Assembly (NCBI GenBank): GCA_000934665.2
Contig: JYFJ02003456.1
Coordinates: forward strand, 1-41,307
Reading direction: 5' to 3'
DNA length: 41,307 nt
Source: Catajapyx aquilonaris
Taxonomy: Eukaryota
Notes under the pieces: generated by a model
Seen by the model: only the letters and a program-made list of their open reading frames with translations
Told to the model about the DNA's origin: nothing
Database searches by the model: none
Made by a program: the position numbers and the translations under genes
Part shown: in pieces, positions 5,856 through 37,451 of the stretch
Numbering within the stretch: the first letter of the stretch is position 1
How the letters are laid out: each line of letters starts with the position of its first letter

Positions 5856-8132
5856 TGTCCTAATAATGTTCAGATCTGCACTTATGAAAATCTGGTTCAC
5901 ACTCCCAACCTATGTTGACAATGCATATGCATAGGAGTGGCATAAACTCTATGCGCATACACTACAAGAAGGAACACATGGTATTTTAACCAGCAAGTCA
6001 ACAAGTCAGGAGGACGTATGGGATACCCATTGACATGCAACTGAGCTTACTTTAGAGACACTTCCCATGCATACCAGAAGTTCTTGCATATGTCAGTGTA
6101 ATCAAACAACCGGCAGAAACACAAATCAATCATAGCCATTCATTCTGTTGTCCTAAATTATTACATAAAACAACACCCTACAGCAAAAGATGGCATCAAA
6201 TCTGCTGTTAAATGTTCCGCACTACTTACGGCAACAAAAACAATATTGCAATCCATTTCTGTGAGGCATGCAACAGGATTACATTGGCAACACTGAATCA
6301 AACAAGAGCCAAAAGCTGCATAAGATTTCTTGGAATGCAGTGTGGAATGGAAGTAGGCAGAGAGGTGAGCGGGTGAATGGTCCCATAGGCATGTTAACAC
6401 ACCCTCTCATGCTATCAGGTGGAGGAATGCTTCGCTGCTGAGTAAGGAACAACATTGAATCAGTCTCACGCTGATGCTCTTGGGAAAGCACAAAACTATT
6501 TTCATGTGTGTGCCCAGTAATAATATTCTTCACCTCCCAATACTCTTTCTGATACATTCTCACACTAGTTATTCACACTAATTCTGCAAATATATCCTTA
6601 TTGTACTCATTATACTTCAGTGAAACCTCAACCTATCATTTCCTGGATTCATCTTTTTGTTCAATTCCTCGAGTCCTGGAAAAAATACTATTTAATATAG
6701 GCTCCTGCATCACCACTGACATGATTGTAGGCACTGGGTGTTGCTGATTTGGCAGGAGTGCTACAGGTGGCACCAAGCGATCCCCTCCCACCACCTGGAC
6801 ACAGGTGGGCTTGCATGACACAGCAATCTCACGTCGTAGCTCCGCAATAGATGCTTTCATCTCTGCATGCTTCAGCTCCAGTTGACCCTTTTCTTTTTCT
6901 TTCTGGTAGACCAGGCGAGCCAAAACCGCATCCACATAATCCAGCTGAGCCAAAGCCTCCTTCACAGTAGCCTGGTCATTCTTGTCACACCAATCCTCGA
7001 TTGTTTCACCAAGAGTATCCAGAATCCTAGTTGCCTCCAAAAACAGTCCAGTCCTAGGCAAACTCATGAACTGCTTCATCTCCACAACCTCCTCTCCAGT
7101 TGCGTTAGTCCTCATTCCCTGGGTCGCAACTTCAGCTACTCCAGCCATCGTCTCCTGGCCTTCAGCAATACCTTCCCTTGTCAAAAGGCAATTTACCACA
7201 CAACAACTAGCACAAACTAATTCTACCATGGGAGCCAAACAAAGTTATAACAAACTAGACAGTCAGTAACCATAACATGCTTCCCCTAGCAACATAGCTT
7301 ATGCAGAACCATGTGCTTGTACTGGTATAAAGCTGTGCAAGCAAGATTCGCTCTTCTGTCACTAGCAGTACCATGCGATGAATGTCCACCACAGTACAAG
7401 CCCTGCAACCCCCACCCTTTTGCATGAGCTTCGTTACTCTCTGATTTGGTGCTGGCTTCACTACTGGGGAGATAAGGTGGTTCGGGTGGCTGAGGAGGAC
7501 TGTGTGAATGTGCCACGGACCCAGCTGCAGTGGAAACGACAGTTTGGGTTGGTTCAGAAGCCGTCTGCCTGAACCGCCTAATGCCCAGCAGCACCAAATC
7601 GATACTCCAGCGGGCAGGAGTGCATTGTAGATCCCTCAGCAAGAATAACGTAAGGCAGAATTATTAATCCTGCCTAAATCACGCCCAGGTGAAACTTTTG
7701 TCATTTCTCCAAACCAATTCCTTTCCACTGCCTTCCAAACGCAGCCGGATGATCTAACGAGCATGTGGCATAATGATTGATTGATGATATAGTATCCGCT
7801 TGTCAACAACACTCGTGGCACCCACATGAATAAATAGAACGGTTCCATCAGCGAGTGATTTACGGCCGCTAATTCCTTCCCACCCCAGGAATCGACCCAA
7901 AGAATGATGATCACCCTTTCTTATCATCCTTCCCGGCCGCGCTGTCCTCCGGCTGCTTCCCTCCTCCGACAGCGTTGGTGGCCTCCACGTCGTTCATGTG
8001 CACCTCTTCCTCCTTCTTCCCCTTGCCGCCGCCCTTCTTCTTCCCTTTTCCCTTCCCTTCCCCTGCCGCGGGGACCGAGGACGAGGCTGGAGGCGCCTCC
8101 GAGGCCTGCTCACGTTTCCCTTCGTCCGCCAT
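1718..8132 (-). CDS. NMT: Glycylpeptide N-tetradecanoyltransferase (N-myristoyltransferase), 10 coding exons, 526 aa
   Basis: Hand-built model: complement(join(1718..1738,1927..2064,2243..2509,3056..3236,4041..4211,4357..4473,4549..4640,4711..4835,5134..5384,7915..8132)) = 1581 nt. All introns are GT-AG with matching phases. Hallmark NMT motifs: [94 protein letters not shown] and C-terminal IGLVLQ*. Confidence 0.97.
3319..3506. mobile_element. Tigger/pogo-like MITE, degraded
   Basis: TA|CAGTGAAACCT ... AGGTTTCATTG terminal inverted repeats. Confidence 0.55.
3707..3904. mobile_element. MITE, PIF/Harbinger (Tourist)-like
   Basis: About 50-bp imperfect terminal inverted repeats (GAATGGTAAGGTCT...CCCCTCTTATCGC / GCGATAAGAGGGG...AGACCTTACTATTC) flanked by a TTA duplication. 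Confidence 0.75.
5461..5848 (+). mobile_element. Full-length tRNA-derived SINE with (TAA)n tail, in NMT intron 1
   Basis: A box (TAGTGGTCTGGTGG), B box (GGTACAAATCC), 3' stem-loop at 5751-5780, (TAA)n tail, and a 14-bp TSD AATAATGTGTCCTA at 5447-5460 and 5849-5862. Confidence 0.9.
5788..5853 (+). repeat. (TAA)n microsatellite, about 22 units; the SINE tail
   Basis: Perfect TAA run read directly from the sequence. Confidence 0.97.
6636..7238 (-). mobile_element. Probable decayed non-LTR retrotransposon ORF1 (gag-like) N-terminal fragment in NMT intron 1
   Basis: 200-aa ORF with a coiled-coil ([26 protein letters not shown]) followed by KPTCVQVV, which resembles the 'PTYAQVV' motif common in arthropod LINE ORF1 proteins. 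No zinc knuckle or RT was seen. Confidence 0.4.
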
Positions 8133-9979: not shown

Positions 9980-12900
9980 TCACACGTAATTGGAAGTGGA
10001 GTATTTGGTTCTGGATACAGTCCTTGGCGGGGTCTCTTTTTTAAACTGGGGGGCGGAATCACGCATGGTCCGGAGGGTCGGGTGGCTGTAGTGCAGCTTC
10101 GTGTGATATCGCTGTTCCACCAGTGGCAGTAGAGAGTCCAGGAGGAAGGCCTTGGATTTTTGAACTACCAAAATCTGTAAAAATTCACGAGGAAAATGAC
10201 AATAAAAATGACATCTCATAAAACTGTCTTACGTTAGTTTACATAATAGTCTGACTTATTTTATGGCAAGACCACCTTTGCGTACCTTAGATTGTGAGAT
10301 CCCTCCAGCCCTGAGTGCAGCTTCCATGTGCTGTAGTTGAGCTTGGAAGACGTCATACATGACCTTGTCAATCTCTCCCTGTACCTCTGGAGAAGCCACG
10401 TCCAAGAGTTGCTTCTGCAGATGCAGGTAGGTCCGGCAGAAGGCTACTGTGCTGGCAGCCAAGGTGACTTGCGACCCATCTGGGGAAGAGACCCTCTGCA
10501 GAGTCTCCTCGGGGAAGCCCATTTCCTGAAGCTCTGAGGCTAGCTTTTGGTGCTGGGATGGTCCCTTCAGCTGCAAGGGCGACCATGTCTCCTCCTGGCT
10601 CCTCAGCTTACAAGAGTCCAGAGCATGTTCCCGGGCCAGAGGGAGAGATTGGAGGACACGTGGACGCAGAAGGGATTCAAGGAGGAAACTCATAGCCAGG
10701 CCCACCTCCGTCAGCTGATGTTTCATAGAAAGGACAATGGTTAATAACATTTCAGACAACATACCTTTCTAAATATTATTGTGCATTCCTAAAACATGGC
10801 AAGATCCTAAGCCCCGGAATTAAACCCACATATAGCTATGACACGCAATACCGCTGTGATGGAGCTTATGCTATAACCCACATACTACTCATATATTACA
10901 GCATTTCACGCTGCTGTTTAAGATGAGAATTGACTGTACTGACCTGTTCACACTGTGTTCGAAGATCAGCAACGCACGATGCTACCAGTGCTAGCGATGA
11001 CTTTGTGGTGAACAAATGGTGAGAATAGCTGACAACAAATGACTCCAGTTCATTCTTCGCCCAGCACACAAATGCTGTGGGAAATTTTCCAAGTGTTAGA
11101 AATTTTACACTCAATGGGGAACTAGCCTTGGTCTGGGATTTGGGATTTTTGTTCATAACTAGCTAGCCCATGCCTGTAAACATACATTCCATCACTCTGT
11201 TGCATCAAAATGACATTACTGGATAAATTACGGCACATTTAAAAGTGCCTTCAAAATTGGCGGGAAAAACGCCGGAGCCAATCGAAAGGGTACACTGAAA
11301 TGCCTGGTTGACTGCGAGAGATGAGGAATTTGACTTTGAATTAACCGCGGACACGACGGAAAGCATTCGCAAGGCGGCTGTAGGCCATCGAGGTGGAGAA
11401 AGGGGGCCTTCATGTGCCGAATTCGGGTGACAGATGATTCCTGCCAGTTGGCACCCCTGCCAGCCCCTAAGCTGATTGAGCGGCGTGAAGTAAAAACGCG
11501 CCCCGGCCGCTATCTTGCTCACGGAATGGGACGGTTGCTAACCACAGCAAAGCATTTTACAACAATGACGGGGCGCGTTCTATAACATCATTTTTGCGTT
11601 CATTTCACTTCGCGTGACGTCAACATTTTCTAGGGAAACAGTGACGTCACCATTTCCCTACATAAAAACCCCAATTACTCCGGAACTAAAGCTGATATCT
11701 TAAAACGGAATATGCCAAAAAAATCCAAAAAATATGGGCGAATTTATTATGTAGTTTCCAAAATGAAGGCTACTCCCCCATTACACGTATGTCTTTATCC
11801 TATGCTTTCTCACTGTAGATTGCATCAGCACCATATTAGGCAAGCCTTTTATGGAAAAATGCAGCATGCAGGAAGCAATGCAAGGGTTACCTGGGGCACA
11901 GTTCTTGCAGTGAGCAAAGACACGCTCATACTCTCTCCCTGTTTCAAGCAGGCAAGCGAAGAAGATGGCTGCCATGTGACCGAGGAAGCTCTGGGTGTCT
12001 CCCTCCAGCTTAAGGTTTTGCAGGCCATTCTTTAGAACCAAGCTGCGCAGCTTGAGGAAGAGATCGCAGGCCACTTGAGGCTGGCCTAGTTGCACTAAGA
12101 GGAGGAGAATCTTCCTGGCTGCACGGGGACCTCCTCGCAGGGACTTGTTGGGACTCACCCGCAGCTCATTGGTTAACGAATCTAGCAGGGTCTTCACCCT
12201 TAACTCCAATTTTTGCCTAGATTAAATAATAATAATTTAGCACAGTGTAAGTTTCGTTTTAGTCCATCAAATAAATACACAAACATATATTTGAGTTTTA
12301 GGAAAAATTTCACATGTAACCAGGGCTGTATTTCCGTAATCTACACAAACATTTTAGCAACTCTTACTTGGCATCCTTTACAAATGGTTCTGGTAGCAAA
12401 GGGCTCTGCAGCTCCTTCCTCACTTGGAATATTATGCCCACTGCAGTCTCAAATGACCTTTGAGCAATATTCATGTCCAGTTCTTCTGCAAAGTCATGCA
12501 GCACTTCTGGGATATTGGTCTGGTCCAGTTCCTCGATTTCTAAAAATGCTGCAAAATATATATTTATGTGAAAATTAGCAAACGGTAAAAATGTACGAGG
12601 GTTGTTTCATAAGTCATGGCGCGTATTTTTTAATTCAAAAACGGTAACACATACAGAGATGACCTTTGCTGAGTTTTGAAACTCAGGCGATTACAATTTG
12701 ATCTGGCATATACATGTCGCCCATATTGCGAGGGAGGCAGGGAAACAAAAGGGGATCGTGACCCCCCACCGCACCATCACCCTAAGAAGGCCCGAGCCTG
12801 ACGCGCTTGGAGCTGTTGGAGGCTGCATGCGGGACACTCTGAGATGGACAACACTAGAGATTGCGTACGAGTGCGGAACTACAGTCAGAGCACTTTGACC

Positions 12901-15900
12901 GGAGCCATGTGTCATCATCGCCACAAGCCGTTTGAAAAAACTATCGCCCTCAATGCGATCGAGTTCCAAGCGAAAGCAAAATGGGTGGCTCTTTTGCACC
13001 TCAAAGAGATGGTGAGGAACCAGCGAGGATGCCAACTTCCTGAGACCTTTCAGTCTTTCAGAGTCCTAAGCATAGTGCTCTGACTTGTCCCACACTCGAA
13101 AGCAAGCTCCTGTGTTGTCCATCTCTGAGGGTCCAGCATGAAGCGTCCAACAGCTCCAAGTGAATCAGGCTGGAGCCGTCTTAGGGCGATGGTGTGGTAG
13201 GGAGGTCACGATCCCCTTTTTGTTTCCCCACCCCCCTCGCGATATGGGCAACATGAATATGCAGATAAAATTGTAATCTCCGGAGCTTCAAAACTCAGCA
13301 AAGGTCATCTCTGGACGTGTTACTGTTTTTGAATAAAAAAATTCACGCCATGACTTATGAAACAACCCACATATAATAAAGTACCATCAAGTGTGTCATA
13401 AAGCTACTCTCGAGTGTGCCTACATTACAACAGACGAGCTACTGTTTCCTATTTGTACCAAGATTATGTGCATTACGATCAGTTTGATAATTTCATAATA
13501 ATGTACAGATGATAGGAAGGGATGATCCCTGGCATCGTTCCACCATGTACACATATTAACTAACTATTTTAGGCAAATATCATGATACCATTATTTTCAT
13601 TTATGGCTTTTATGCAGACCTGCATAAAAGCCATAAATGAAAACAATGGTATCATGATCTGTGGTCATAACTGCTTCCAGCACAAATTTTCAATACAAAT
13701 TTGAATCGCTGCACAATGCATGCATGCTCTCACTTCATTACAAATGCAGCATGTCATGAAACTGTGCTTTATGCTTGTGGGATTACAGCTACAAATACTT
13801 ACGATTGCTGGAATCAAATGAGTCAGCCTTAGAGAGCTGTGAATGTGGGCGTTCTGAAATCATGCTTTCTCTTTTCTGCTTCTCTTGGTCCTTTCTGCTT
13901 TGTCTCACTCCATCAAAGGCCTCCATCCAGTCTTTCTAATGTGCAAAATAACATGGCATTAACCAAAACACCAGGAGAAGGAGGAAGTTGACAACGTGAA
14001 CTTACCTTGCTCTGTGCACTTGAGCTCTGAAAGACTCTTGTGTCGGAAGACAGAATCTTGAAGGCATGCTTCACATGATCAACATCTTTTATGTTGACGA
14101 CAGCCAAACTTTCTAAGCCATAAAGCTTCTCAAATCTGTACCGGTTTGGTCCACCCCTAAAACAAAAGCATCGCAATTTTAGTAATTTCACTGAGTATTA
14201 TTGATACATGTAACATAACAATAATCATATTTATCCACAGTTAGATTTTGTCGTTAAATGAACAAGAATTGTCTTCTCATCTAAATGCGATAAAGTGTGC
14301 ACACCTGCTACCAATCCCCTTGGCAACAAAAAAACAGTCATTGAGAAGGCATCCCCTGACCCTCTGCATGGGAATGTTCTCCACTGCGTCCAGCTCTATG
14401 AGATCCCCATCCTTCACCAAGGTCCTTCCTGGCACCTCCAGTACTACACCACACCCTTCTATCTTCTCTAAGAGAGCCACCAACTTTTTTCGACCTTCAT
14501 TCTCCTCTGGCTCCACCTTCCTGTCTCTCTCCTGAACACCATTCATCTCATGCATTGTCTCCCCTTGGAGGGAGGTGTCAAGAAGAGATGTCAGAAGTGT
14601 CTTCTGCTCCGTCAGCATGTGAGACAGTTGGTACATCTCACTCTCCAGGTCTGGAAGAGTTATTCCATGGTCACATGTGGTAAAATTAAAAACCTTGCAA
14701 GAACATAGCATGGTAAATCGCATTTCCTGGGCATAATGGGTTGAACCAATAAGTCACAATCTTCCTAATCACTCATAATAAAATTATAAATATCACATGC
14801 TCTTTTAAATAATTCCTACTCTATGTAAGCTTGCAGCTGGTTTTATAAAAATTTACCGTGCAACTAATAATGACTTTTAATTGTCCCAGTTATCATTGGT
14901 TCTCACAGTAACTTCCTCCTAGACAGAAAATAGTAATAAAAGGAGTGATTTTTAGAGCCCAACTTGTCAACTGAAGGCTGCACATGCACCTTTATGTATG
15001 CAGGTAATTATGAAACATTAATAATGACATAATCACACTATAATAATGGATACCCCGTGCTAGGCCTCCTTGGGCCTCTTAGGGGATCATCTTTTATTTA
15101 ACCAACTTTAATCATTGCCTGCGCTGTGATGGATTTTGATAGCAGGAGGAAACAGAAGAACCCCGAGAAAACCCATGCGAACACGGAGAGAACCCATCGA
15201 AACTCCCACATAAGAATCCTCCGTCCGACCCGGGGATCGAACTCGGGACCTTAGAGGTGGAAGGCTGCGGCGCTAACCACTCCACCACCGTGTCACCCAT
15301 GACATAATCATACAAGCTTACATGAAATCTCCTTGGCAGCCTCAATAAACTGCATGTAGTTTTGGTACACATTCTTTTTGAGCTGGCTGTTGGTCTCCTC
15401 TGCTAGAGAGCGAATCTTCTGCCTTTGTTCCTGTAAGTCCCTGCTGTTCATGTTCTGCAGGGTCAGCTCCTTCACATCTGCAAAATATAACACCCTTTAC
15501 ATGGCTGAACAAATAATATGCCAGTGTGTTCCACTGAGATAATGATATTCAAAAGTATGTCATGAAATAACCCAGACAGGTGTGCGTGCCTCATGCTGGT
15601 TTGGCCCTTTTGTATTTAAAATATACTGTACCAGTGTTATATTGATTTACTTCAAAATGCTCAGTCCCTAGATCTAACAGGTAGTTTTGCATCCAATGAA
15701 AGTGTTTCAGACTGCTGCTGCATGATAAAATGTGGGACATATGGGAAGTAGGGGAAAATATGCAGTGTCCAATTTCACATTATGAAATTTATAAGACCCC
15801 TCTCAGGTCAGGGTACACCAGTGCTTCCCAAATTGTGGGTCGCGACTCCATTTGGGGGTCGTGAAAATAATATTTGGGGTCGTGAGGAAAGGTAACAAAT

Positions 15901-17175
15901 TATTTTCACAAAATGATGCTATCTTTCTTGAAAATCATGACCATAAGGTAAGGTCATTTCACTGCTTACCTGTCTTTTCATGTGGGCGGATCGAAATGTG
16001 CACATATAGGGGGGTCGCTAACGAAAGAAATTGGGAAGCACTGGTGTACACCAACCAGTGCAGTGAAAAATTATAAATAAAACAATAGTCTAATAGACAA
16101 CATCAAGAGCTAACAATTAGTTATTAGCTCTTGACAACATGGGATGTCTCTTTATAGCGATTGCATCACATTTTGTGTGTTTTGTACGCTATTTCATTCC
16201 AGAACCTCAGCATTATTTTGTGACCCCTTCATTAATTTCCAAATCCCCCCCATGCAGAAGTGGTGACCAAAAATGTGGAAGATATGTGCATTTCACGACA
16301 CACAACATTTGGTGTCATGCAGTGCTAAGAGTAAGGAGTCGACCTCAGATTAACTCCAAATAACAACTTCACTCTACAAATGTGCCTAGTCTACTCCGGT
16401 CTACTCCTTAGCATCAGAAGTAAGCAACATTCCCAGTAAAACATGCAACATAGTCTGCACTCATAGGTCACCACATCTGCACCAATCTTCTCCAGCCAAA
16501 CACTTGCTTTTTCCATTTCCTCCATCTAATACAGCGACAGGCACATTTTTCTTGCCTGCCATGTCTCCTGCATCTCTGACTACCCTTTTCAGCGGAAATG
16601 TCAAGACAGTTTAGAAAAGTCAATACAATTGGCCTCCTCGTCCATTGGGTCTAAACATCTCTGACACACTGTTTGCATTCTACATTTGGAACTGGAGAAT
16701 TATCTAACAAATATTAGCATAGTGGACCCACCACTAGTGTATACACATGTACGCATAATATTTAGTATACAGTATGTGTGTGTACATGTAATGCATGTAG
16801 CGTGCACATAATATTTAGTGCACAAAATGCATGTAATATTTAAAGTGTGGTGTATCTTAGTAGTCTGATATCTTTGTGTAAAGTGATCCAGACACCTTAC
16901 TAGAAGGAGGAAGACCAAAACTGATTTTTCAATGCGTACACCTCTGAACCCCAACTGGTAAGCGGGAAACCTTACAATTCCCCATCCCACAATGTTGCGC
17001 AGGCATCACCAGCTCAGTCCCAATTCCCTCCCTTGTCCCAACCCGAATGACCCAGCGGTGACCCCTAGTGACATGACAGTCTCCCCTTGTGTCAATAGTG
17101 GTGTCCAATCTCACATTTCTCAGGGCTGAAGTCCTGCCCCGCGAACTTGGCCGCGGTCGGAGTGGTGTCCGACAT
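9980..17175 (-). CDS. EXOC8: Exocyst complex component 8 (Exo84), 10 coding exons, 702 aa
   Basis: Hand-built model: complement(join(9980..10174,10286..10714,10944..11074,11891..12216,12368..12548,13803..13935,14006..14156,14305..14650,15322..15477,17115..17175)) = 2109 nt, GT-AG with consistent phases. Motifs: DFSPEKYVKEL, LKKNVYQNYMQFIEAAKEISYLESEMYQLSHMLTEQK, PH domain (GDLIELD...LLNDCFFVA...LAVVNIKD), SPNKSLRGGPRAAR, LGQPQVACDLFLKLRS. Confidence 0.95.
11116..11779. mobile_element. Non-autonomous DNA transposon in an EXOC8 intron
   Basis: Imperfect terminal inverted repeats GGGGAACTAGCCTT / AAGGCTACTCCCCC around a CpG-rich interior containing paired GTGACGTCA palindromes. Superfamily uncertain. 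Confidence 0.5.
12596..13371. mobile_element. Mariner-derived fold-back element with about 300-bp inverted arms
   Basis: TA|CGAGGGTTGTTTCATAAGT ... ACTTATGAAACAACCCACA|TA. The minus strand retains transposase remnants (WTTQELAFECGTSQSTM; LVPHHLFEVQK similar to WVPHEL; EGDSFFKRLVA similar to FLKRIVT). Confidence 0.9.
13579..13658. repeat. Near-perfect palindrome: 39-bp arms, 2-nt loop
   Basis: ATCATGATACCATTATTTTCATTTATGGCTTTTATGCAG-AC-CTGCATAAAAGCCATAAATGAAAACAATGGTATCATGAT, one mismatch. Confidence 0.95.
15036..15298 (-). mobile_element. tRNA-derived SINE with a V-SINE-like core
   Basis: A box TGGTGGAGTGG, B box GTTCGATCC, central TGTGGGAGTTT...TTCTCTCCGTGTTCGCATGGGTTTTCTCGGGGTTCTTCTGTTTCCTCC resembling the V-SINE core, 3' stem-loop, and a 12-bp TSD ATGACATAATCA at 15024-15035 and 15299-15310. 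Confidence 0.88.
15819..16043. mobile_element. hAT (Charlie-like) MITE
   Basis: TIRs CAGTGCTTCCCAA / TTGGGAAGCACTG; 8-bp TSD GGGTACAC / GTGTACAC (one mismatch). Confidence 0.88.
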
Positions 17176-18001
17176 CCTCTCTCTTCTGGCGAGACCGTAG
17201 GTGACAAAACCTCAAAACCACCAGAAAAATAAACGAAACGAACAAATAATAATAAAAAAGGAGGACACCCACAATCGGCCCCCTTTTTTTTTTCTTTCTC
17301 TTTTCTTTTCTTTTTTTTACCAATGCGCACTCCGACGTTCACATGTTCGACAAAATCAAGGGTGCCAACATGCACAGTTTGGCAACACCGGTTTTTTAAA
17401 CCGTGCATCCTTCTTAAAACACTGCTTAGATCCAATTAGCGGGAATGTGTACGGTTAAATCGAGTTAAAATGCGGTTTAATTACGATCCGGTCAGGATTT
17501 GAATCGGGCGGGTGAGCCTCGGGGCGGAGATCATTTGCATCAGCCAGGGGTGGACAAACGGTCGAATTTATTTTGAGCTCTCTGCTCACTGCTACTAATA
17601 TCCCAGAAAATAGCAGGTAGCAACCCCAGTGCTTGGCAAGTGTTCACATACTTTCTCTACATTGCGGATTAGTAAAAAATGCGTTTCTCATCCGATAAAT
17701 TCCGAAAAGAAGTAGGTAGTGGCCTTTTAAACAATTCCTGCAGTCTGCTCCGACCGGCAGCAACTCATCAACAGCTATTTCCGTAGCAGCTGCTATGCGA
17801 TTGAATCGCCAACTCGCGCCAACTTGCCCTTTTCCCAACGACCCAACATGGCGGCCTCTTTTCCCCGGCCCTGAAACGAACGTTGTGTGGTGCTCGTGCC
17901 GCTTTCGTTTTTCGGCCATCCCCGCCGCCTCCAGGCCACTGGGTTCTGGCGCCTTTTCCTCCGCCTCCTACGTCGCTGCCCCCACGCCGCCTGCCGCTGC
18001 G
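17176..18001. promoter_or_regulatory. Putative bidirectional promoter and 5' UTR region shared by EXOC8 and the POM121-like gene
   Basis: Divergent start codons lie 0.6-0.8 kb apart; the region is CpG-rich relative to the CpG-depleted gene bodies; YY1-type AACATGGCGG motif at 17845-17854. Confidence 0.7.
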
Positions 18002-21000
18002 ATGGAAGGCGCCTACGTGAGTCCCCTGCCACCGGATCGGGCCAGGGTCCTTCCCACCCGGAGAAGCATGGAGGAGACGAGGCCGTCCCCGTTCATCCCG
18101 AGGCTGGGCCTGTTCCCGGTAGTCAGACTCAACCCGGTCCCTCTGCCCAGGATCAGGATCAAGAAGGACCTCAGGAGGAGGACCATGTGCACCGTCAGGC
18201 TCGCCTCCCCCTACGCCATGCTAGACCAGCAGCCACTTGGGTAAGGGCCCATGCTCAGCAGGACTTGCAAAGCTGAAGCCGTGAATTAAATACGTGCAAG
18301 CTCCGCACAGCCTATTTTGAAGGAATTTTAGTACCTATTTGCATTCCATATGTGTTGGCCGTACGGGAGTGCAACCAAAGGTAATCGTTAAGTGCAAGTA
18401 CAGTAGAACCCCGATTGTCCGACCTCGGATTATCCAACTGACCCACACCAACACTAAATGAATGTTTTCTCATCAAATACTGTATTGTAGGCCTTCTAAG
18501 CACTTGTTTTGTATTGACTTAATTAAATTTAAAAAAGTAGAGTGTATATGTAAAGGATAAATACTTCACTATTTCTTAGAAAACCATGATATTGTATATT
18601 GTTTCTTGCTTTCATGTTTTTTGTTGTGTTTCATTTTTCCTTTGCTCTTAGGATTATCCGACCTTTTTTTTGTGTTCCGACCATGCCTTGGTCCCATGGG
18701 TGACAGATAATCTGGGTTCTACTGTAGGTGCTGGAATTAGCTGATGTGAGAAAAAGCCACACTCTGAGTGCTGGGGCATTTGGGGTTACTTTGAGTGACT
18801 AGAAGAAACTGGCTCTCTGACATTGTGTAATGCCAGGATCAATGACCTCACTTGGCGCATTCAATAATGATAATATTGATAATTGATACTTTACCCTGTG
18901 ATGGGCTTGTGGAGTTGTAAATTATAATTTTTAATTTCTTTGGTTTTGCAATGCCCACAAAAGACACTCGGAACCTTCCAAAATTATTATTTTAATAGCC
19001 CAGATATATGATGACCAATTTTTTCAATACATATTGTAGTCTACAACTGTTATTTAATTAAATCAATGCTTGCCTAGAGACTGATCACTTCCCTCTTGCG
19101 TAAAGAATCGTGTGCCTAGGTCCAGGACCTGTATACTGGACCCCGACGTCTCGAGGGGAACTCGAGGATGCGACTCTGCGTGACGTCAAAATGACGTATG
19201 CAGACCAATCCGGGGCAGGGGAGGTACCCAGCCTACGTCATTTTGACGTCACGCAGAGTCGCATCCTCGAGTTCAACTCCAGACGTCGGGGTCCAGTATA
19301 CAGGTCCAGGTATTCCCGAGTAACCAGTCGGAGCAATTTGGTATATCACTGTACTTATCATGCCTGCACAAGAACACTTGGTGTCCTTAAGTCTCACTTT
19401 ATGAATAATAATTAATATAGATGTCTCATCAGTAAACATGCTAATAATTTAATTTAATGAAGAAAACCAGTGGGGCACATCAGTGAAGTGTTACAAAAAA
19501 CTTGCATGTATAGACACACATTAGAAATACTGGAACCTTTTTAGAAATTCAATTTTTGGGCCACTTCTTGCTCATCGAAGTCTTATCAAATGAGGTTAAA
19601 GTACAGGGTAGTCAAAAAAGACTGCCCCGATTTAAAAACCCTATAACTCGAAAACTTGTAAACATGTCTTAATGATGTAAGTTTTGACATGCTAAGAAAT
19701 GTCTAAAGTCTCACCTTACTTTGTTTCGAAATGAGCTTCATTTGTCACATGGCAGATTTTAAAATGCGGTGTTCAGCACACACCGGATCAATCATGTCTA
19801 GAGTTACCATTGGGATCGTATCCCGTAGGTGCTGGAGATGGTGGATCTGTACACTATTCTTGATGATGTACATGAAAAGTCAAAATTCGTCTCATCCATG
19901 AAACAAACCTGCTGTAGGAAAGACTCATTTGTTCAGCCTCCCACTGTGCAAAGGCTTGAATGAGACGTTGCCCAGTCCCCCCCCCCCATAAGCCCATATC
20001 TTACCCAAATTGACTTTTTTGTGGAGATACATGTATGGTTTAATGATCCAGGATCTCCAGCACCTACAGGATAAGATTGCAATGGTAACGCCAGACATGT
20101 CTGAGTGGGTTAGGCACAACATCAATTACCATATTTACATGTTCTGAGCGACAAATGGAGCTCATATCGAAGCCAAACCATGGTAAGACCAAAACTTGAG
20201 ACATTTTTTAGCATTTCAAAACTTAATCATTTAGATGTCTGCAAGTTCTCAAGTTATAGGGTTTTCAAATTGGGATACCCTGTATTTTTGGGCAGTTCCC
20301 CAATTATTTATCCCCCTGCCAAGTTAACTCCACGCTTTTGTAGTTTTTGCCAGGTGCCCCAAAAATATCAGCACAGATTCTGTCACAGACGGTTAAGGGG
20401 GATAAATTTCCGAGTTTTCCTATGCCATTGATTGCACTGCACTTGACCTTGCACTCCCTGTGTGACAATTAAGATTATCGAAATCTTCACAGAGGGAGTG
20501 CAGTTATGAGAATTCTGGGTCATCGATGATATGTGCAAGCCAGGTGTCATAATAACAATACTAGCGTTTTGTCTTTGTAGAAACATACCTAAGAGAAATC
20601 ACCCATTGTGACACTTCTTAAACATTAGCATGCCATACTCAGTTTATTCATTTTTTCCTTGGTACACAACATGTATTCTTGGTATTGGAACTAACTTGTA
20701 AGTATAAGCAGCGAATTTCACAGGGTATTAAAAAGTGGAGCCCTGTGAGTGTTGATTGATTGCAATGTTCCTTATGATGTGTTGTTTTTTCAGTAGTCGA
20801 AACCACTTTGAAACCACCAGCATTCAGCAGGATCCTCCTCCGACTGAGAATGGGCAAGATGTAATCCATGCTCTACAAGCTATATCTGAGTCACACATTC
20901 CGGGAGAAGACCATGTCATCGAGCACTCAACAACTTCACAGCAGCAGATGCAGCAGCAGAAGAGAGTGGACAGGACACCAGAGCAGGAGTTAGTATGAAG

Positions 21001-24000
21001 CTGTTTGTGGACGCGATTTTTATTCTCCTTAGGTAATGATGGGCTGCCTTAGTGCATTATTCATGATGTTGCTTCACATGTGTCAGGAATTTGATAAGAA
21101 CGGCCTGTTTCTTCAGGAATTATTGGAACCCCCTTGCATAAAAATATTTCACTTTTACCCCATGGTGTAACTTCAGATTGGGGAAGGCCAGTACTATAGA
21201 AACAACACAACTGAGTATAGTAGGTATTACGGCAGAGATGTGGCAGTATCGGTGAGACTGTTCATAATGCAAAGTCAAAGAATGTTGACAAACACCTTCT
21301 AAAGTGGTTTATTTCAACAGCAGGGACCAGCCACGCAAACGGACCCGGAACAACGAGATCTTCAGCTCCCTGAGTTCTTCAGCTATCATGCGTGTTCCTA
21401 AGCGCACGCTTGACCATTCAGGAGCCTCATCTTCTGCATCCTCCTCAGCCTGCAGCACACCACTTCCACCATCCCTTGGAAAGCACCTCAGGCGGGCTTC
21501 TCCGTTTTCTTCAGCTCCAGGATCTGCCACACATTCCATCTGCAATGGAGAGGATGGAGGGAAGGAGCACACACTGCAGCGAGATCAAAAGTGGTCAGCA
21601 AGATCTACTCCAAAAAGGACTCCACCATTGGTGCATGGAGGAAGAGCAGAGCTGCAGCGTGACCTAGAACGGGACAGACAGAGGTTGGCAACCATGCTGG
21701 CCGCATTTGGAAGTGGCAGTGAGGACAAGGGAGATGCCAAAACTGAGGGCCAGACGGCAGCAATGGCCAGCCTCAGCACTGAAACCAATGTGGTCACATC
21801 CAATGCAACCCCAATATTGGCTGTATCACCCAACACTGTGTCCAAGGTTGGTGAGAATAAGTCAGCGCCTGTCTCAACAGCTGCTACATTGTTGGCAACC
21901 CAGCCAACACCCACTGCATCACCATCATCACTGCTAGTGTCACTGTCAAGTCCCGGTACCCAGGCACCTGGCAGTAGCATTTCCAACTTGCAAACTGGGG
22001 TGTCCAACAATGATTTTCCAAAGGTTGCACTTCTGCCAACTACATCTTCCGTTGGATTTCCACATTTCCAGAGTGTACCAACAACATCTGCTGATGGTTC
22101 ACCAAAGGTGACGATGGCACCAGCAGCACTTGCAGGTGGATTCCATAAACTTGCAACACCACCAGTGACGTCTCTCAACACAGTTCTGCAGTTTGGGTCT
22201 GCCCCTGCTACAGTAACTACACCGTCAACTGCAACGACTAGTACATTAGGTCTACCCACCAGTATCTTCAGCTTTGGGGCACAACAACCAAGTACTACAA
22301 CAGTTGTGGCAGGAACACAACAAGCAGCAGAGGTGACAACTTCCACAAATGTGTCACTGTTGTCAGTGCCCGCAACTGCTGTGTCATCATTAGGCTCACA
22401 GATAGCAACAAGCCAGCAGCAACCAGCTCCAGCATGGAGTTATAAGGGGCCAGAACAGACCACCACTGCGGCTGTGTCACAGCCATTTGGTTTTGGTTCA
22501 CAAATGACAACAGCCAATTCCTCTGCTGCATCACAATCAGATGCGACGTCAGCATTAGGGGGGCATCAGCTTGCACCTGCCAGTACCACAACTCTACAAC
22601 TATCAGGTTTTGGTTCACCTTCAAGCCTGAAACAGTCAGCAGCACCAATATTTTCCTTTGGCTCCAAGCAAACCACTGTGGAAACAACTGCACCTGCCTC
22701 CCAGCAGTTGCCATCCACTCCCACCTTAAGCTTTGGCCAGCCATCTTCGGGTTTGGGGATGCTGAAGTCAACTTCAAATACTGTTACCCCTCAGCAACCT
22801 GTCTCGTCACTTTTTGGAACACAGCCCTTGACTACCTCAAGCTCTGCTCCTTCATCAATCTTTGCCTTTGGTGCGCAACAATCCACAGCTGCCAGCAGTA
22901 CACCTGCTGCCACATCATTTGGCTCACAGCAATTAGCTCTTTCCAGTTCACAACCCCTGCCGACATTTGGCTCACAACACTCGGCTGTGATTTCAACCAG
23001 CTCACAACCAGCATCTATATTTGGGTCTCAGCCAGTTTCTGCCGTCACTTCACAGCCTGCACTCACATTCGGGTCCCAGCCAGGTGCTGCTGCCACTTCA
23101 CAGCCAGCAGCTACATTTAGCTCGCAACAATTGGGAGCTGGAGGAATGCAACCTACACCAGCATTTGGGTCGCAGCAGATGAGCACTGGAGCTTTGCAGA
23201 CTTTGCCATCGTTTGGCTCACAGTTTACTCCTGGTGGAGGCACACAGAATCTGTTTGGTTCTCAACAGTTGGGTGTGACTAGCACTGCAACCTTGCAACA
23301 ATCCATGCCAACATTTGGTGCACCACAGTCAACTTCTGCTTCCACCCAGCCTGGGAGCATCTTCTCTTTTGGTGCGCAATCAATGGCAGCGACAACCGCC
23401 ACCACTCAACAGCAGCAGCCAAGCTCAATTTTCACCTTTGGCTCTCAACAAACTTCTGCCACAACAACCATCTCCCAGGCACAGCAGCAGCCCTCTTCAA
23501 TCTTTAGCTTTGGCTCGCAGAATTCAGCTGCACCCTCCTTTCCATACGGCTCCACCCCTCAGCCAGCCACGACATTGCCATTTGGTGCTACACAGCCAAC
23601 ATCAGTAGCACCATTTGGGTCGACGCAGCCAACTCCAGCAGCGTCAATGCCATTTGGGTCAACACCATCTTCATCAATGACACTGTTTGGGTCAATGCAG
23701 CCAGCAGTAGCAACAACAACAGCAGCAGCAATGACATTTGGATCGACACAGACTCCACAATCATTTGGATCGACACAGGCACCACCAACATTTGGTGCCT
23801 CTCAACAATCGCTGCTGCCAACAGCACAGTCCAGCTTCAACTTCACACCCAACAATGGAACTGCAACAACCATGTCATCCTTGTTCTCTTTTGGTACCGC
23901 AGCACCAAGCACAGCAACAGCAGCTAAGCAGCCAGCAATGGGGAGCATGTTCCAGTCCAACAACAACTCTGCAAACAATTCCAGCTTGTTTGCATTTGGT

Positions 24001-24336
24001 GCGCCTAAGAGCACAGCAACGGAAGCAGCACCACCCAATGTCAATCCCTTTGGAAACAACAACTCATTCTCCTTCCCATCTGGTCCTGCAACCACTGCAT
24101 CCACTTTCCCTTTTACAACAATGAGCACTGCAACAACGACAATGTTCAGCAGTCAGTCAAGTGGCCCAAGTGGACTGTTCACATTTGGGTCAAGCATGCC
24201 AAGCACAACAGCCACTTCCAAGTTCAATTTCACGCCTACCAACACACAGCTTGGTGGTGGTGGTGGTGGTGGATTCAACTTCAATGCCGCTGCACCAAGC
24301 AGCAATACTTTTGGTGGCATGGCAAACACACAGCAG

Positions 24337-24368
<32 letters not shown>

Positions 24369-24498
24369 ACAGCAAGGAATGTTCGCCTTTGGTGGCGCCA
24401 AGCAAAATTCTGCAGGGTTCAACTTTACAAGCCCAGCAGCCAAATCAGGCTTTCCAAACGCAAACCCAGGAGTGTTTACATTCGGAGCCAGCAGTTGA
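18002..24498 (+). CDS. POM121: FG-repeat nucleoporin, POM121-like; 3 exons, about 1203 aa (1272 aa if the in-frame ATG at 17795 is used)
   Basis: join(18002..18240,20794..20988,21321..24498); both introns are phase 2, GT-AG. The last exon is 3.2 kb and Ser/Thr/Ala/Gln-rich with about 35 FG dipeptides (xSIFSFG, PTFGSQ types). N-terminal blocks LGLFPVVRLN, TVRLASP, DVIHALQ, KR-x-RKRTR and RNNEIFSSLSSS resemble, in the same order, vertebrate POM121 blocks recalled from memory (LGVLPTVCWN, TVRIAPP, ETVLSALK, NLS, RNAITSSYSS). The FG-nucleoporin call is firm; POM121 orthology is inferred. Confidence 0.8.
18401..18724. mobile_element. Tigger/pogo-like MITE
   Basis: TA|CAGTAGAACCC ... GGGTTCTACTG|TA with internal GATTATCCGA-type subterminal repeats. 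Confidence 0.85.
19126..19306. mobile_element. Young hairpin-type MITE with about 73-bp arms and a CAG target duplication (Harbinger-like)
   Basis: GACCTGTATACTGGACCCCGACGTCT...GCGTGACGTCAAAATGACGTA and its near-perfect reverse complement; flanked by CAG on both sides. Confidence 0.85.
19604..20282. mobile_element. Tc1/mariner (maT/rosa-type) internally deleted fold-back element
   Basis: TA|CAGGGTA ... TACCCTG|TA with long degenerate inverted arms. The plus strand retains the transposase C-terminus (PPISPYLTQIDFF similar to PPRSPDLTPLDFF; VTPDM; ATNGAHIE). Confidence 0.82.
24331..24375 (+). repeat. Coding (CAG/CAA)15 polyglutamine tract; nearby (GGT)n polyglycine at 24253-24273
   Basis: Read directly from the sequence; in frame in the nucleoporin. 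Confidence 0.95.
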
Positions 24499-26723: not shown

Positions 26724-29620
26724 TCACACCACTGCTCCATCTCTCAAGATGCATATCCCGTCCTGGCAAGCCTGGCACGCATCAGGCTTGTGCGGCTTCA
26801 TGGGCTTCCCTGGGCGACGCTGTTTGAGAACTGGCTGCCTCTCCTTTCCGTAGAACCTTTGAGCAACCTTATTCGAGAGGTTCTGTACGACCTGGAAAAT
26901 AGATTGATTAGTCAAAAATGTAATTTGCAACATGTTGGGACTTCATCGCCAACATCAAATACATCAATCATAAAATAAGGTTACACACCTCACGTGAATG
27001 AGTGATTAAAAGGTGCAAAATAGAGCTAACAAAAACCAATTCTCACATGAAAGGCATAGCATCACTGCAAGGGGGTAACCAGTAACCACTCCCCCAAAAA
27101 GTGTACACCAGTTCCTGGAACTAGGTCGTTCCACCCGGTTCCAAGCCGGTTCCACAGGGACCATGCACACAGGTTCCACGAAGTGGTTACCCCCTCGCAT
27201 CACTGCAATGTTGACGTGCAAGTTCAGTAACATCTTGGTGACATGCAGAAAGTTGAAGAATTGAAACCGTCCACAGAGGCTATGCCTATAACCCAAAAGC
27301 CATGTAGCAACACACATGGGATGCTTTATACAGGCTGATTGGAAAACATGACACGAGCAGGACACCATTTTGTAAGTGCCGTGCCACTTCCTCCTAATCA
27401 TCCATAAAATGGGATAAATGCAACCAAAAAATATTTATATGACTGAAACAGGAGAGGAAAAGTGCCAAAAATTTCCATATCACGACAAATGACCTTTCAA
27501 GTCATATGTTTTCACTAAAATGCCAAAGATTGTTTTAATTTACAATGGTGTATTCCTTCTGTGGTTAACATTCTCATAATAATCAAGTTTTCCCAACCAT
27601 TCAGTTCCACACTAGTTCAACTTTCAACACCTGGCACAACTATTAGCTTTTATCCATACCCATAAAAAACACTTCTTCTGCCAACATCTATCATGCCAAG
27701 CTACCATAAAAACCAATATGTTCTCAAAGATTTGACAATAATTACTGAATGCATGTCACACTTATGAACAAACTGTAACAAGACTATTTAAAGCCACTTG
27801 TACATCAACAGTACTTCCTTTTCAGGCTATTTATGAGTAGCTGTGATGAAGTTCAACCTTGTCTTCTGGAACAAAGGGAGAGATGATTGTGGCTCATTAA
27901 CGCAATCTTCTACCTACTGCAGAAAATATCGTCACCCAAAGTACAGTAGTTACAAAGCCAATTGTACGATATCCCCAGAACCAGGAGAACTGCTGTAGCC
28001 AGTCAAACACCCCCCCATGGTAACATACACTCATTTTGAAAACTGCTGTTGCTTTCCCCAACAACGAATTGGCAAGTGTGAATTGAAAAGACATATTCAT
28101 TGTAACAAAACCTACCTTGTGGACCTCCTCAGGATACCACATGGGTGTCTGGAACTCAGGCTTGTTGCAAGACAGGCATTTCTGCCCGTAGAGCTTGAAT
28201 CTAATGGTTCCCACGTTGCGCCTGAGCTCTATCCAGAAATTGGCACGCCCTTTCATGGATGTCCAGCCATGGCCACAATGCTCACAGAGAAACCTCACTT
28301 TGGCTGCATCCGTAAACTGCAGCCCATACCCGTGATCATACACTGGCACGAGGCTCCAAGTCCCATCGAATGCAGCAAAGAACGACTGGAAGCACAGGGT
28401 CCAGACGTCCTCCAGGCCACTACACAAACAAGAAATATGTGTGTTTTTAAAAAATCTTACCAACTAATCTGCATCAAGTACCAGCAAAATATATATATAT
28501 ATATATATATTTAAATCGATACAGTTCCTCTCTTCACTTCCAGTCTACACTTTGTGACTCGTCTTTCCCACTACTGTCACGCATTTTCACTGCTAGTTTG
28601 TCGACTTGCCGAACTTGACCAAAAATCATCTTCGAATAGAACTTCCGACTGTCTGTTGCACAATCGGCAGTTTCCCCCAACAATTGAGTTGGCGCAACTT
28701 GCCCTTGGTCGGGTGAGAAAATGAGGTCTGTCATACGGTCAAGGGGTAAATCACACTCGTCAAGTCGGTTGTACGGTATAAGGAGCCGCCAACTCCCACC
28801 AAGTCCGTTGTACGCTCAACTGACCAGTGATTTACCCCAAGGTTGCATATTCAATTTCGGTAATTTTCACTCATTTCCGTAAGTCATCATCAGCAACAAC
28901 GTAACGCATCACGAATCATAGAATTACGGCAAGAGCGAATGTAACATGCGAGAATATGCCTACATGGTATGACACACGCAAAATTAACTCAATTCAAAGC
29001 ACCGAACACGATCCAGCCACAACGCCACTCACATTTTGTCAACATTCACCTACTATTACGTGCTGTTACTCACCCAGCATCGAAACATTGCGATTACTCC
29101 AAGCAGACTATGGGCAAAGTCAAGGTCTACACTGTCTACACCTAGATTATTATAGGCGACTCCTCTCACTGGTCACTATGCCTGTGCGGGGATCTCCCTA
29201 GATTCCTAGAACATTCGAAATAGAACACCGCGACTGACCCGCTGGCTCCCGGATTTAATGTCACGGATTTTCCTGCACTGCTATCGGTGCCCCGGAACAC
29301 TAGTTTTATAGCACCCTTTTCATCCTACCAGATAAGTACCACGTGCTTTATCGCGATGTAGTAACCACGCGTCAATTCATTCACAGCCTGGCAGGTGTCA
29401 CCTACCCGAATTGGTCACCAGGCTCGATGGACGGAGGGCAGTAGTAGCGTTCTGGTACCGCCGGTTGCGGTACAGACTGGTCGTACGTCGGTGGATCGAC
29501 GTACATGTAGTTGGCATACCAGTTGCAGGGCACAGTGGTCCAAATCGGTGTGTTCTCGTACTGCCCTACTACGGGCACGTATCGCACCACCGGCACGTAC
29601 GAGTAAGGAACCCCCGCCAT
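26724..29620 (-). CDS. zf-3CxxC zinc-finger protein (receptor-transporting protein / RTP-like), about 228 aa short form
   Basis: complement(join(26724..26891,28116..28419,29406..29620)) = 687 nt, phases 2 then 0, GT-AG. Motifs: W...F (DVWTLCFQSFF), RFLCEHCGHGWTS, FKLYGQKCLSC, PMWYPEEV and PHKPDACQACQDGIC, i.e. three CxxC pairs plus His as in the RTP/zf-3CxxC family. The two core exons are certain; the 5' exon is less so. Confidence 0.85.
27068..27197. mobile_element. 130-bp hAT MITE
   Basis: TIRs CAAGGGGGTAACCA / TGGTTACCCCCTCG; perfect 8-bp TSD CATCACTG at 27060-27067 and 27198-27205. Confidence 0.85.
28743..28838. mobile_element. Small MITE
   Basis: TIRs GGGGTAAATCAC / GTGATTTACCCC; TSD unclear. 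Confidence 0.6.
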
Positions 29621-33829: not shown

Positions 33830-34610
33830 TGGACATACATGGATCGCTTAATCAAAGCTGTCCAAAGTGACCTTCCACCGCGCCAAGCGGCTGGACGGGT
33901 ACTTTCCGGTGTGAGGAAACTTTAGTCCCATGTGATCTGTCCAGATCACGACATGCGAGTACTCCAAGTACTACGCATGTTTCTTCAGGGCGAAAATAAT
34001 CGCCAAGCGCTCTCCATCTGTGGTCGAATAATTATTGAACTCACATGGTCCGGACAACAACCGACTTGCGTACGACAGCGGGACCATTCGACCCTGCTGG
34101 TCATCCTCCTGCATCAGGACAACCCGACCTCCGATTGACTGGCGTCACGCGTCACAAAAGAGGGCAAATGGTTTATCTAACTGCGGCACGGCCAATTCGG
34201 TACAGTACATCATCAGGGCATTCCTAATGTCCTCAAACTCACTACTATGCACGTCTGCCCATTCAAAGACTGCATCCTGCTTCAGTAACTTGTACAAGTT
34301 GCGTGCGCGACATGTCAAGTGGTCAACAATGTGATCCCGGAAATAATTGACATACCCTAAGAACCGCATAAGCGACTTCTTGTCCGTAGGAACTCTGTAA
34401 TTCACCAACGGCTCCGTCTTGGCAGGGTCTGGCTTCACAAAACCATTGTCAATCACAAATCCGAGACGCTTGATTGTTGCAGTGCACAGCTGCGACTTTT
34501 GCCCATGCAAATGCATTCCAGCCCTTGCTAGGGTGGACAACACTTCATTCACGTGCCGCAAATGCGTCTCAAAGTCTGGGCTGTAAACCACCAAGTCATC
34601 TGCATGCCCA
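33830..34610 (-). mobile_element. Decayed Ty3/gypsy LTR retrotransposon pol fragment (RT C-terminal half plus RNase H)
   Basis: ADDLVVYS..FETHLRHVNEVL, LGFVI, KPDPAK, RFLGYVNYFR, FEW, KPFALFCDA, then past stop codons PLSYASRLL, NYSTTDGERLAIIFALKK, WTDH and SRLARW. Confidence 0.92.
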
Positions 34611-35325
34611 ACCAACCCAAATTAAATTTAGTTTCAGTCACCTAACCCGTCATACATCGCAACATTAATCCCATGGGGCAGCCCTAAACTTTCCCCATTC
34701 ACAAGCCTTCCTCCCCTTAAATCAGAATGGACAGGCCCAATACAAATTTCTATGAAACATTATTGGCACTATCATGCATTCAAAGTGCATCAGCAATATC
34801 CCAGCAAAATATTGTACGTATGCCTCATGAAATCAATACATTGCATAGACGCATCCCTGAAGAAATTCTTATACTGATCCCATACATTCAACTTGAGCAA
34901 GGTTATTTTTTTGCACCAATCAAGTTCAGTCCAAAATGCAAATAATCCTCATTTACCTGGCTTGGTCATGAACTGAATACATGAGCCTGTGTAATTCTAG
35001 GCTACAGTTAATTCATCAAGAGAATAGTACTGATGTCACAGACCTTGAAGTGTTCTTTGTCTGTTTCATTGGTGGCCTTTTGTTTCCCTGCATTGTCAGA
35101 TTAACCCACTGGTTGCATGAACTGTACCAGAACTCCAGAAGCACGTTAAAAAAAACTGTTCTGCAAAACCATGATGCAATACGAGTGGCAAAAGCAACTT
35201 CGGTAGCTGCATAACTCTTCACTGTTGATATTTGGGGTCATTTTTTGATAATGAAATATTTTTGGTGTACGGTAATTAGACAGCACAGAGAAAACTGAAC
35301 CTCCTCCACTTTTGATCAACATGTA

Positions 35326-35542: not shown

Positions 35543-37451
35543 TACATATCATGCATACTTCCAACCCATTTTCACAAACTTACCTTCTGATAAACTATGT
35601 ATTAATGGCAAAATTTGGTGCCAGATAATTCAACAGAGAGAGGCAATCAAGCGAAACTTGAGCATATATCATTTAGACGGCCTGGTGAAATTCGACAAAG
35701 CAGCGGGGCATTGTACCGAACAAATGTAACGAGACTCGTCCCTCAATCGAAAGTGCTTGTACAGTACCTGTGGAGAGGTCTTCATAGTGAAGCGGTAGTC
35801 AACCATGGTGTCACTATAGGCAGGCCTCGAGGCAATCTGTGTCGGCCGGGGATGTATACAGAGATGGAGGCGGCACGTCTACACTGCACGACGGACGAGC
35901 AACGACAAGAAGCTGCCCGCTGGGGATGTGGGGTAATGCGGGGGCAAGGGGGCGTGTGAAAGCGGGAGGCTCCGAGGTGGGTGAATCCGTGAATCGACGA
36001 AATAGAAAAGCGCCATCGCACAAGCCAGGATGCCAAATCGACAAATTACAAGGGGGGACAAAACTACATTTCTTGCTGCATGCCTGTTGGTGGAGACAAC
36101 CATTGTTATCTATAGGCAATGCTCAGATTAGGCGCTTATTGGGAGTGTTTTTCACAATAATGGCCATTGGACATGGAGGATGGAGCAGTTTAGCGTGATA
36201 AAAGTGGATTTTCTCATTTTTGGTTACTTGTTTGATGGGTCAGAGTAGCAACGCAGTCTGAATATCACAAAAAAGAGGCAAACTTGGGCCGAGGATAGTG
36301 CACCTTTGGCAACTGTTTGGCACGGACGAATGACGTCATGGTTGGCATATCCGCTCCCGTCGGTTGCATTACCGACAACTCTGGCACTTTTCAATACTAC
36401 CGTAACTGTAAGTTATTTCAGGGCCCATCCATTCAGACCTTACACGTAATTGACGGATTGCACAATATTCCAACACGGCTCAAGATTCGGACTGCATTTC
36501 CGCTCGGATGAATAATCCTCCAGACCGCCACCCAACAGCCCAGGATATCAACCCCCCCTCCTCGCCGACGGACTATTTTAATGAGGGGGAACGCGCGAAA
36601 AGGCCCTGGGCGGGATTGGGTGGGNGGGTGGGTGGGTGGAGAAGGGTTTCCATAATCGTGAAATGGACAAGTGTTGCGGCCAGATTTTAACACTCACAGT
36701 CAGATAGATAACACGGCAATGCAAAATTGGACAGGCGCCAATATGGGCTTCCAGCGTTGCGAGGGGATGGCACATGGCAGGGGATGCAATATGGCTGGGA
36801 GTCGCTATAGCCAGGCCTAATTTCAATACTTTTTTCCATCCCTCCGACCACCCCCGTTTTAGTGCGTCCATATAATACAGTAGGCCTACTGTATAATATT
36901 AATGTGAAACTCGGTTCTGTTCGAAATTCCAGTGCCCTATTTCAAAAATTCACATTCGCAATTCGTTGCGTACCACAGCTACGTTTATTGCGTTAAAAAG
37001 TGCGTCTTGCGGGTGCACTTCATCTTCGGAAATGCAGCGCCGCGCTGCCTGACAACGAATAATGTCAGGATTGGACGCCATTGCTCCACATTAGCCCAGC
37101 TTCTGGCTGCAGTGGCGCGGGGCCGGCCGACACCCCTCGCCGCTAATTGCGCAGCCGGGCGCAGCAATGATTGGGGGACGTAACGACCCGGACGGGGAAG
37201 GAGGCCCCTCCAATCCAGATTTTGGCGCAACGACTTATGGACCTAATGACTTGCAGATACGTACAATATCCTGTACCATATTATTCTTGTAAGACGGCGC
37301 ATTTTTTTGTATTTCCGCCGCCCAACTGGCGCACCCTCGGCCAAATAACCCGGGCAATACCGTACGGGTGCTGCGTCATCACAGCGTACAAGTGCACATA
37401 ATATGTAACAAGAGTCGTCCCTCAACCGAACGTGCAAGTCCCTAACATTAC

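Follow-up and report, generated by a model that had tools for sequence, protein, structure and literature searches.

We found that a stretch of 41,307 nucleotides from Catajapyx aquilonaris (contig JYFJ02003456.1 of assembly GCA_000934665.2, positions 1 to 41,307 of the forward strand; hereafter the window) contains a spliced plus-strand gene for a phenylalanine-glycine (FG) repeat protein between positions 18002 and 24498. The spliced frame encodes 1203 amino acid residues, from the ATG at 18002 to the TGA at 24496-24498. We give about an even chance to the reading that the product is an almost wholly disordered FG-repeat nucleoporin with the layout of vertebrate POM121 minus its membrane-spanning first exon. 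Kinship with POM121 is suggested, but it is not proven. The product is probably a soluble protein without a membrane anchor, as judged from the exons that were seen.

The gene was defined by its reading frames and by the contigs of X1, the single public run that contains the window DNA. The kind of library is not on record for X1, and we used the joints in its contigs, not depth. X1 behaves as transcript-derived, because it also skips the nine CT..AC introns of EXOC8, the neighboring gene on the minus strand, in one 2456-nt contig. The 13 joints listed comprise these nine, two in the nucleoporin gene, and two opposite-strand joins that are presumably repeat-related. The splice borders of the nucleoporin gene were first read from the sequence (GTAAGG follows the last base of exon 1, 18240) and were then independently confirmed by X1 contigs, which skip both introns (18240 to 20794 and 20988 to 21321), each with GT..AG ends.

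The coding part of exon 1 (18002-18240; residues 1-79 and two bases of codon 80) is an open frame with a third-position G+C content (GC3) of 0.8-0.9 and a GT donor at 18241. It encodes EGAYVSP, LGLFPVVRLN, a basic stretch (RIRIKKDLRRR), and TVRLASP. The X1 contig with the first joint spans only about 18146-18240 of this exon and joins 18239/40 to 20793/4 across intron 1 (18241-20793, 2553 nt). Exon 2 (20794-20988; residues 80-145), both borders of which were joined in an X1 contig, encodes DVIHALQ, a glutamine-rich run, and KR, the first half of a bipartite-like basic site. After intron 2 (20989-21320, 332 nt), exon 3 (21321-24498; residues 145-1203 and TGA) forms a 1069-codon open frame, which carries RKRTR and RKRTRNNEIFSSLSSS / RNNEIFSSLSSS near its start and continues with further basic sites. 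An X1 contig is identical to exon 3 over 21354-24321 (zero differences in 2968 nt), and a further X1 contig covers 24381-24721 unspliced. As this second contig crosses the region without a joint, the C-terminus (...FTFGASS) stands as read, and the 3' untranslated region extends from 24499 at least to 24721. This is a real, spliced FG-repeat gene.

A first-pass annotation of the window, made from the sequence alone, is confirmed in part. The three exons are borne out by the X1 joints, the FG-repeat character is borne out by the FG content, and all the peptides that it quoted, including RKRTRNNEIFSSLSSS at the start of exon 3, lie in three open stretches on the plus strand between 17720 and 24498. 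The basic site KR...RKRTR is indeed formed across the junction of exons 2 and 3, an in-frame TAG (17717-17719) shuts the frame upstream, the protein ends at FTFGASS, and EXOC8 begins nearby on the other strand (ATG at 17175, contig to 17260). The proposed start codon at 17795 has to be revised.

GC3 jumps to 0.8-0.9 at 18002, whereas in 17795-18001 the G+C content at second positions exceeds GC3. Because the coding GC3 signature begins at 18002, this ATG is the likelier start, and the ATG at 17795 is an upstream in-frame ATG that probably lies within the 5' untranslated region. There are nine ATGs between 17260 and 18002, and only those at 17795 and 18002 open the frame of the gene; before 18002, no ATG other than 17795 starts a long frame. 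The ATG at 17848 opens a short upstream open reading frame of 8 codons. This ATG belongs to CCCAACATGGCGGCC at 17843-17856, upstream of the likely start codon, which we take to resemble a YY1-type core-promoter motif. A codon-usage log-likelihood was uninformative on the start codon, since a control intron reached scores at the level of the exons, and the start was therefore judged by the GC3 profile.

The interval between the two genes (17261-18001), which are arranged head-to-head, is CpG-rich (CpG observed/expected of about 1, and G+C of up to 0.69 over 17100-18000) and has no coding-like GC3; the EXOC8 contig reaches 17260. Its composition and position suggest that it is a probable bidirectional promoter shared with EXOC8, together with the 5' untranslated region of the nucleoporin gene.

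Three parts make up the protein: some 150 residues with short linear motifs, a cluster of basic sites resembling nuclear localization signals (NLSs) with one helix after it, and about 770 nearly uncharged residues of xFG repeats, rich in serine, threonine, alanine, proline, and glutamine, that reach the C-terminus. FG occurs 35 times, compared with 5.9 +/- 2.2 in 2000 shuffles (shuffle maximum, 15). Residues 436-1199 hold 32 of the 35, mostly at spacings of 9-45 residues, and the FG domain is dense from residue 436 (about 22192-24495 in the window). Residues 1-300 are charged (43 lysines and arginines, 33 aspartates and glutamates), and residues 301-1203 are nearly uncharged (14 and 8, respectively). 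Serine (15.9%), threonine (12.8%), alanine (11.1%), proline (9.5%), glutamine (9.4%), and glycine (8.1%) dominate the composition; the whole protein has three cysteines and no GLFG. Eight basic clusters were found by pattern matching in residues 20-244, before the FG domain, and the bipartite-like site KR-x12-RKRTR occupies residues 136-154, with its halves 12 residues apart. When the initial 340 residues of exon 3 were modeled by AlphaFold2 from the single sequence, one helix was predicted (residues 106-129 of the piece, with a predicted local distance difference test score of 83-94), and the rest scored below 50. The predicted helix corresponds to protein residues 252-275 (21640-21711 in the window). 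An FG nucleoporin domain of the cohesive, uncharged kind has this composition, and here it is attached to a head that is disordered and basic and bears motifs.

At the DNA level, the FG region contains tandem units of 48 bp and 27 bp (16 and 9 residues), a (TGG)7 run that encodes seven glycines, and a CAG run (24331-24374) that encodes 17 glutamines inside the FG domain. The X1 contigs are interrupted exactly at the CAG run (between 24321 and 24381), in the way that simple repeats break assemblies.

The layout of the protein agrees with that of vertebrate POM121 (human POM121 and POM121C) in several respects. Both have about 1200 residues, and in published descriptions POM121 has a long unstructured region rich in basic NLS-like sites before the FG repeats and an uncharged FG domain that fills the C-terminal part (PMC3069009, PMC13242641). 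The layout found here matches POM121 as described without its transmembrane exon (Funakoshi 2011). Unlike vertebrate POM121, the exons seen here have neither a transmembrane segment nor the lumenal head of about 30 residues, only about 60 residues precede TVRLASP, and the Pfam profile of POM121 (PF15229) matches none of the exon pieces. Thus, among the features by which POM121 is recognized, the NLS cluster and the FG tail were found, but the profile match and the transmembrane segment were not.

The N-terminal motifs may follow the order of those in POM121, as the first-pass annotation proposed. The protein here ends in FG repeats, without the basic C-terminal tail that the first-pass annotation attributed to POM121.

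The family assignment was examined by several kinds of search. When exon 3 was compared with the ESM Atlas, the nearest cluster was 'Nuclear envelope pore membrane protein POM 121' (score 0.91, 174 of 256 features), in which all members carry PF15229 and Chordata is the commonest phylum. POM121-like protein 2 (POM121L2) scored 0.88, an unnamed arthropod cluster was second best at 0.89, and PF15229 was present in eight of the ten best matches with a family.

Against these likenesses stand a number of results that weigh on the other side. PF15229 gave no match at E <= 10 on any of nine exon pieces (two versions of exon 1, one of which includes the upstream stretch, then exon 2, the whole of exon 3, and five cuts of exon 3); the region equivalent to PF15229 is split by the two introns and the pieces were queried separately, and the HMMER filters drop most matches above an E-value of about 0.1. 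The generic Nucleoporin_FG profile (PF13634) reached only 15.9 bits (E = 0.024) on the last 457 residues, below its cut-off of 32.2. A phmmer search with exon 1 against 1.84 billion representatives found no relative, a HMMER search against a clustered set of 5.8 billion also found none, and word-seeded searches with exon 3 (the whole exon, residues 1-150, and the latter at E <= 10) gave no match. Nothing relevant was obtained in PDB searches. As these searches returned no relative from another genome, the conservation of the motifs is without support. In the Atlas, exon 1, where the majority of the claimed core motifs lie, had no usable match. The recognition value of exon 3 was 1408, compared with 2300 usual for known families, and its likeness to POM121 may reflect composition.

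The few matches that did appear were regarded as chance or disregarded. The only phmmer matches of exon 1 were two bacterial TPR-repeat proteins, matched over 20 residues. The PDB rows (phage tail proteins and a nucleotide-binding protein, E = 0.95-1.9) were also taken as chance, and the Pfam matches to DUF3618 (E = 0.047) and DUF2656 (E = 1.1) were below their cut-offs. A metagenome scan with exon 1 gave 508 pattern matches, of which a single one withstood tblastn. This match falls within a 463-codon bacterial-type open reading frame on a compact contig dense in open reading frames, and was attributed to chance.

These results can also be explained by a lineage-restricted FG nucleoporin with no descent from POM121, for example one with a nuclear-side role of the Nup153, Nup1, or Nup60 type, whose likeness to POM121 comes from shared composition and common short basic motifs. 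We consider this explanation somewhat unlikely, and it is the most serious of the alternatives. All the alignment-based searches are blank, exon 1 is without an Atlas match, the arthropod cluster scores almost as high as POM121, and the Atlas itself flags a query of low recognition as weak evidence. However, PF15229 predominates among the best Atlas matches with a family, no Nup153, Nup214, or Nup62 family is among the matches listed, and the parts of the protein (motifs, NLS cluster, and FG repeats to the C-terminus) follow the order described for POM121.

The established FG nucleoporins were considered individually. Nup153, Nup214, Nup62/58/54, Nup98, and Nup50 share with the protein an FG domain and the weak generic Nucleoporin_FG match. 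In contrast to them, no Pfam RanBP2-type zinc finger, Nup153, Nup214, Nsp1_C, Nup54, Nup98 autoproteolytic, or Ran-binding domain was detected in any exon piece; the three cysteines do not allow a zinc-finger array, and GLFG is missing. Because their folded signature domains were not detected, these nucleoporins are unlikely candidates, by elimination in the predicted protein. A match to a Nup153, Nup214, or Nup62 domain, which the first-pass annotation had named as evidence against its proposal, was therefore not seen in the exon pieces, although the Pfam POM121 profile that it had proposed as a check failed to match as well. Its POM121-like identity stands as far as the layout and the Atlas neighborhood of exon 3 are concerned, and finds no backing in the Pfam and HMMER searches.

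The lack of a membrane anchor was examined next to the question of the 5' end. In the exons seen, no transmembrane segment was found: the highest Kyte-Doolittle mean over 19 residues was 1.25, the in-frame stretch from 17720 included. This much of the earlier claim about the coding frame holds. The protein may be 'constitutively soluble', as had also been suggested, but the 5' end of the transcript is not covered, and the transmembrane domain of vertebrate POM121 is located in a separate first exon (PMC3942032), the very part that such a gap could hide. The X1 coverage of exon 1 begins at about 18146, and no contig lies over 17261-18145; thus, our reading of the sequence is the basis for the start codon, for codons 1 to 48, and for the lack of an upstream exon.

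A second alternative follows from this: the gene may be an ordinary membrane-anchored POM121 orthologue, in which the transmembrane segment is encoded by a 5' exon that escaped detection and that overlaps EXOC8 or lies upstream of it, or by an alternative first exon, and the soluble form is an artefact of the gene model. The position of the vertebrate transmembrane domain and the gap in X1 coverage agree with it, as does a pyrimidine-rich AG at 17933-17934, a possible acceptor for an upstream exon, in a frame that is open from 17720. Nevertheless, we think it improbable. EXOC8 starts its first exon on the other strand within 740 bp, and the interval has the appearance of a single bidirectional promoter rich in CpG; this head-to-head arrangement argues for a first exon at this place, although an exon further upstream may exist. 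In 17261-18001 there is a single hydrophobic window (17265), which has no ATG before it and falls in a stretch of pyrimidine runs with a TTTTC repeat at 17285-17318, and 17795-18001 is without the coding GC3 signature. Over positions 1-21320 of the plus strand, a scan gave 36 hydrophobic windows; the frames that contain them have 23-163 codons each, and no window bears anything that marks an exon.

A third alternative, that the protein is a nuclear low-complexity protein outside the pore (such as a transcriptional co-factor rich in glutamine, serine, and threonine, or a condensate scaffold) that is FG-rich by accident, appears more improbable still: it would agree with the absence of a nucleoporin profile above cut-off, with the run of 17 glutamines and the NLS-like sites, and with the action of the soluble Pom121 of hominoids at promoters with Nup98 (PMC4888837), but the 32 FGs at residues 436-1199 in a nearly uncharged background rich in serine, threonine, alanine, and proline are a hallmark of FG nucleoporins, and the Atlas neighbors listed with a family all belong to nucleoporin families.

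We therefore return to the reading of the protein as an FG nucleoporin of POM121-like layout and consider how it might act. Importin alpha/beta would bind to the basic sites and import the protein into the nucleus. Scaffold nucleoporins of the pore may serve as docking sites for the N-terminal motifs, as they do for the part of POM121 that contacts the beta-propellers of Nup155 and Nup160, and the FG tail would contribute to the permeability barrier and bind transport receptors. Anchoring would then be achieved through protein contacts, not through a membrane span. Work on the human protein provides direct precedents for this scheme. When residues 1-136 are missing, human Pom121 is still targeted to pores; binding to the nuclear envelope is a property of residues 137-265, and five NLSs are located in residues 266-513 (PMC3069009). 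The Nup155 and Nup160 propellers, as well as Nup98, are bound by residues 215-557 (PMC3003318). A 2025 review regards the place of POM121 in the pore as still unverified (PMC13242641).

Forms of POM121 type without the transmembrane exon are already described in mammals, namely the sPom121 of hominoids, which is nucleoplasmic and partners Nup98 (PMC4888837), and the NPAP1 / NPAP1L / UPF0607 retrogene family; loss of the first exon is described for the NPAP1 family (PMC3942032). In this respect they are like the protein studied here. They differ from it in being recent, mammal-only derivatives of an anchored parent that arose through an alternative promoter or retrotransposition, whereas here the transmembrane-less form would come from the main promoter of the locus itself. 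In the case of Tetrahymena, TtPom121 was likewise assigned by layout and not by alignment, with an N-terminal NLS and a C-terminal FG region (PMC5450191). Unlike the protein here, which has no transmembrane domain in the exons seen, TtPom121 was named for its N-terminal one.

The remainder of the window contains several other features. The coding region of EXOC8 (Exo84) occupies 9980-17175 on the minus strand in 10 exons and encodes 702 amino acid residues, as shown by the nine CT..AC joints in the 2456-nt contig and the rebuilt open reading frame. Pfam searches with its single exons detected Exo84_C (E = 3.5e-15) and PH_EXO84 (E = 9.7e-4). The division of EXOC8 into 10 exons, together with the failure of PF15229, a profile built on vertebrate sequences, suggests an invertebrate source. 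EXOC8 and the nucleoporin gene diverge across the CpG-rich interval of about 740 bp.

Foldback inverted repeats were found in intron 1 of the nucleoporin gene (19122-19310 and 19788-20104) and in an EXOC8 intron (12594-13373), with arms of 80 nt (94%) and 75 nt (79%) and nested arms of 112 and 116 nt. Through opposite-strand joints, X1 contigs connect 7517-7538 with 15106 and with 19123, at places of high depth. This suggests a dispersed small foldback element resembling miniature inverted-repeat transposable elements.

Downstream of the nucleoporin gene, a minus-strand open reading frame (27900-28463) matches Zn_ribbon_3CxxC (Pfam, E = 5.1e-12), and a reverse-transcriptase fragment (RVT_1, E = 1.1e-7) lies at 34148-34621 on the minus strand. 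A block richer in G+C (37000-39300) has, on each of its two strands, long overlapping frames in which similar peptides recur. The RVT_1 fragment and this block are probably retroelement remains. Near the other end of the window, a minus-strand open reading frame (5093-5620) encodes a lysine-rich stretch followed by ...FWNTQPVPK..., with no Pfam match on the piece; it resembles the N-terminal exon of N-myristoyltransferase.

In several invertebrate genomes, names of the 'POM 121-like' type have already been given by automatic annotation, which would lessen the surprise of finding such a gene in C. aquilonaris. The published accounts consulted on the distribution of POM121 disagree. The protein has been described as 'restricted to vertebrates' (PMC2951903), as having 'emerged in vertebrates' (PMC4888837), and as 'present only in Chordates' (PMC6371224), and also as 'more widely found' (PMC8421043), the last resting on the ciliate protein named by its layout (PMC5450191). 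In a literature search that left supplements aside, no description of an invertebrate or a non-mammalian soluble POM121 was found.

One possible history is that POM121 did not originate as a membrane protein of vertebrates but began as a soluble, NLS-bearing FG nucleoporin, which existed in invertebrates and was held on the scaffold of the pore by its short N-terminal motifs, that vertebrates later added the transmembrane first exon, and that sPom121 and NPAP1 represent a return to the ancestral state. We regard this scenario as unlikely in its entirety and put it forward tentatively. The FG nucleoporin of POM121-like layout reported here is a candidate for the question of the origin of the family, not yet evidence on it; the locus provides a well-defined candidate with exact exon coordinates, not a demonstration. 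If it is a true invertebrate homologue, the origin of the POM121 family would move back, and if it truly lacks an anchor, the pore-docking and FG parts would have preceded the membrane span. If true, this would also bear on the way in which pore assembly in interphase is seeded, in animals whose known anchors are limited to Ndc1 and gp210.

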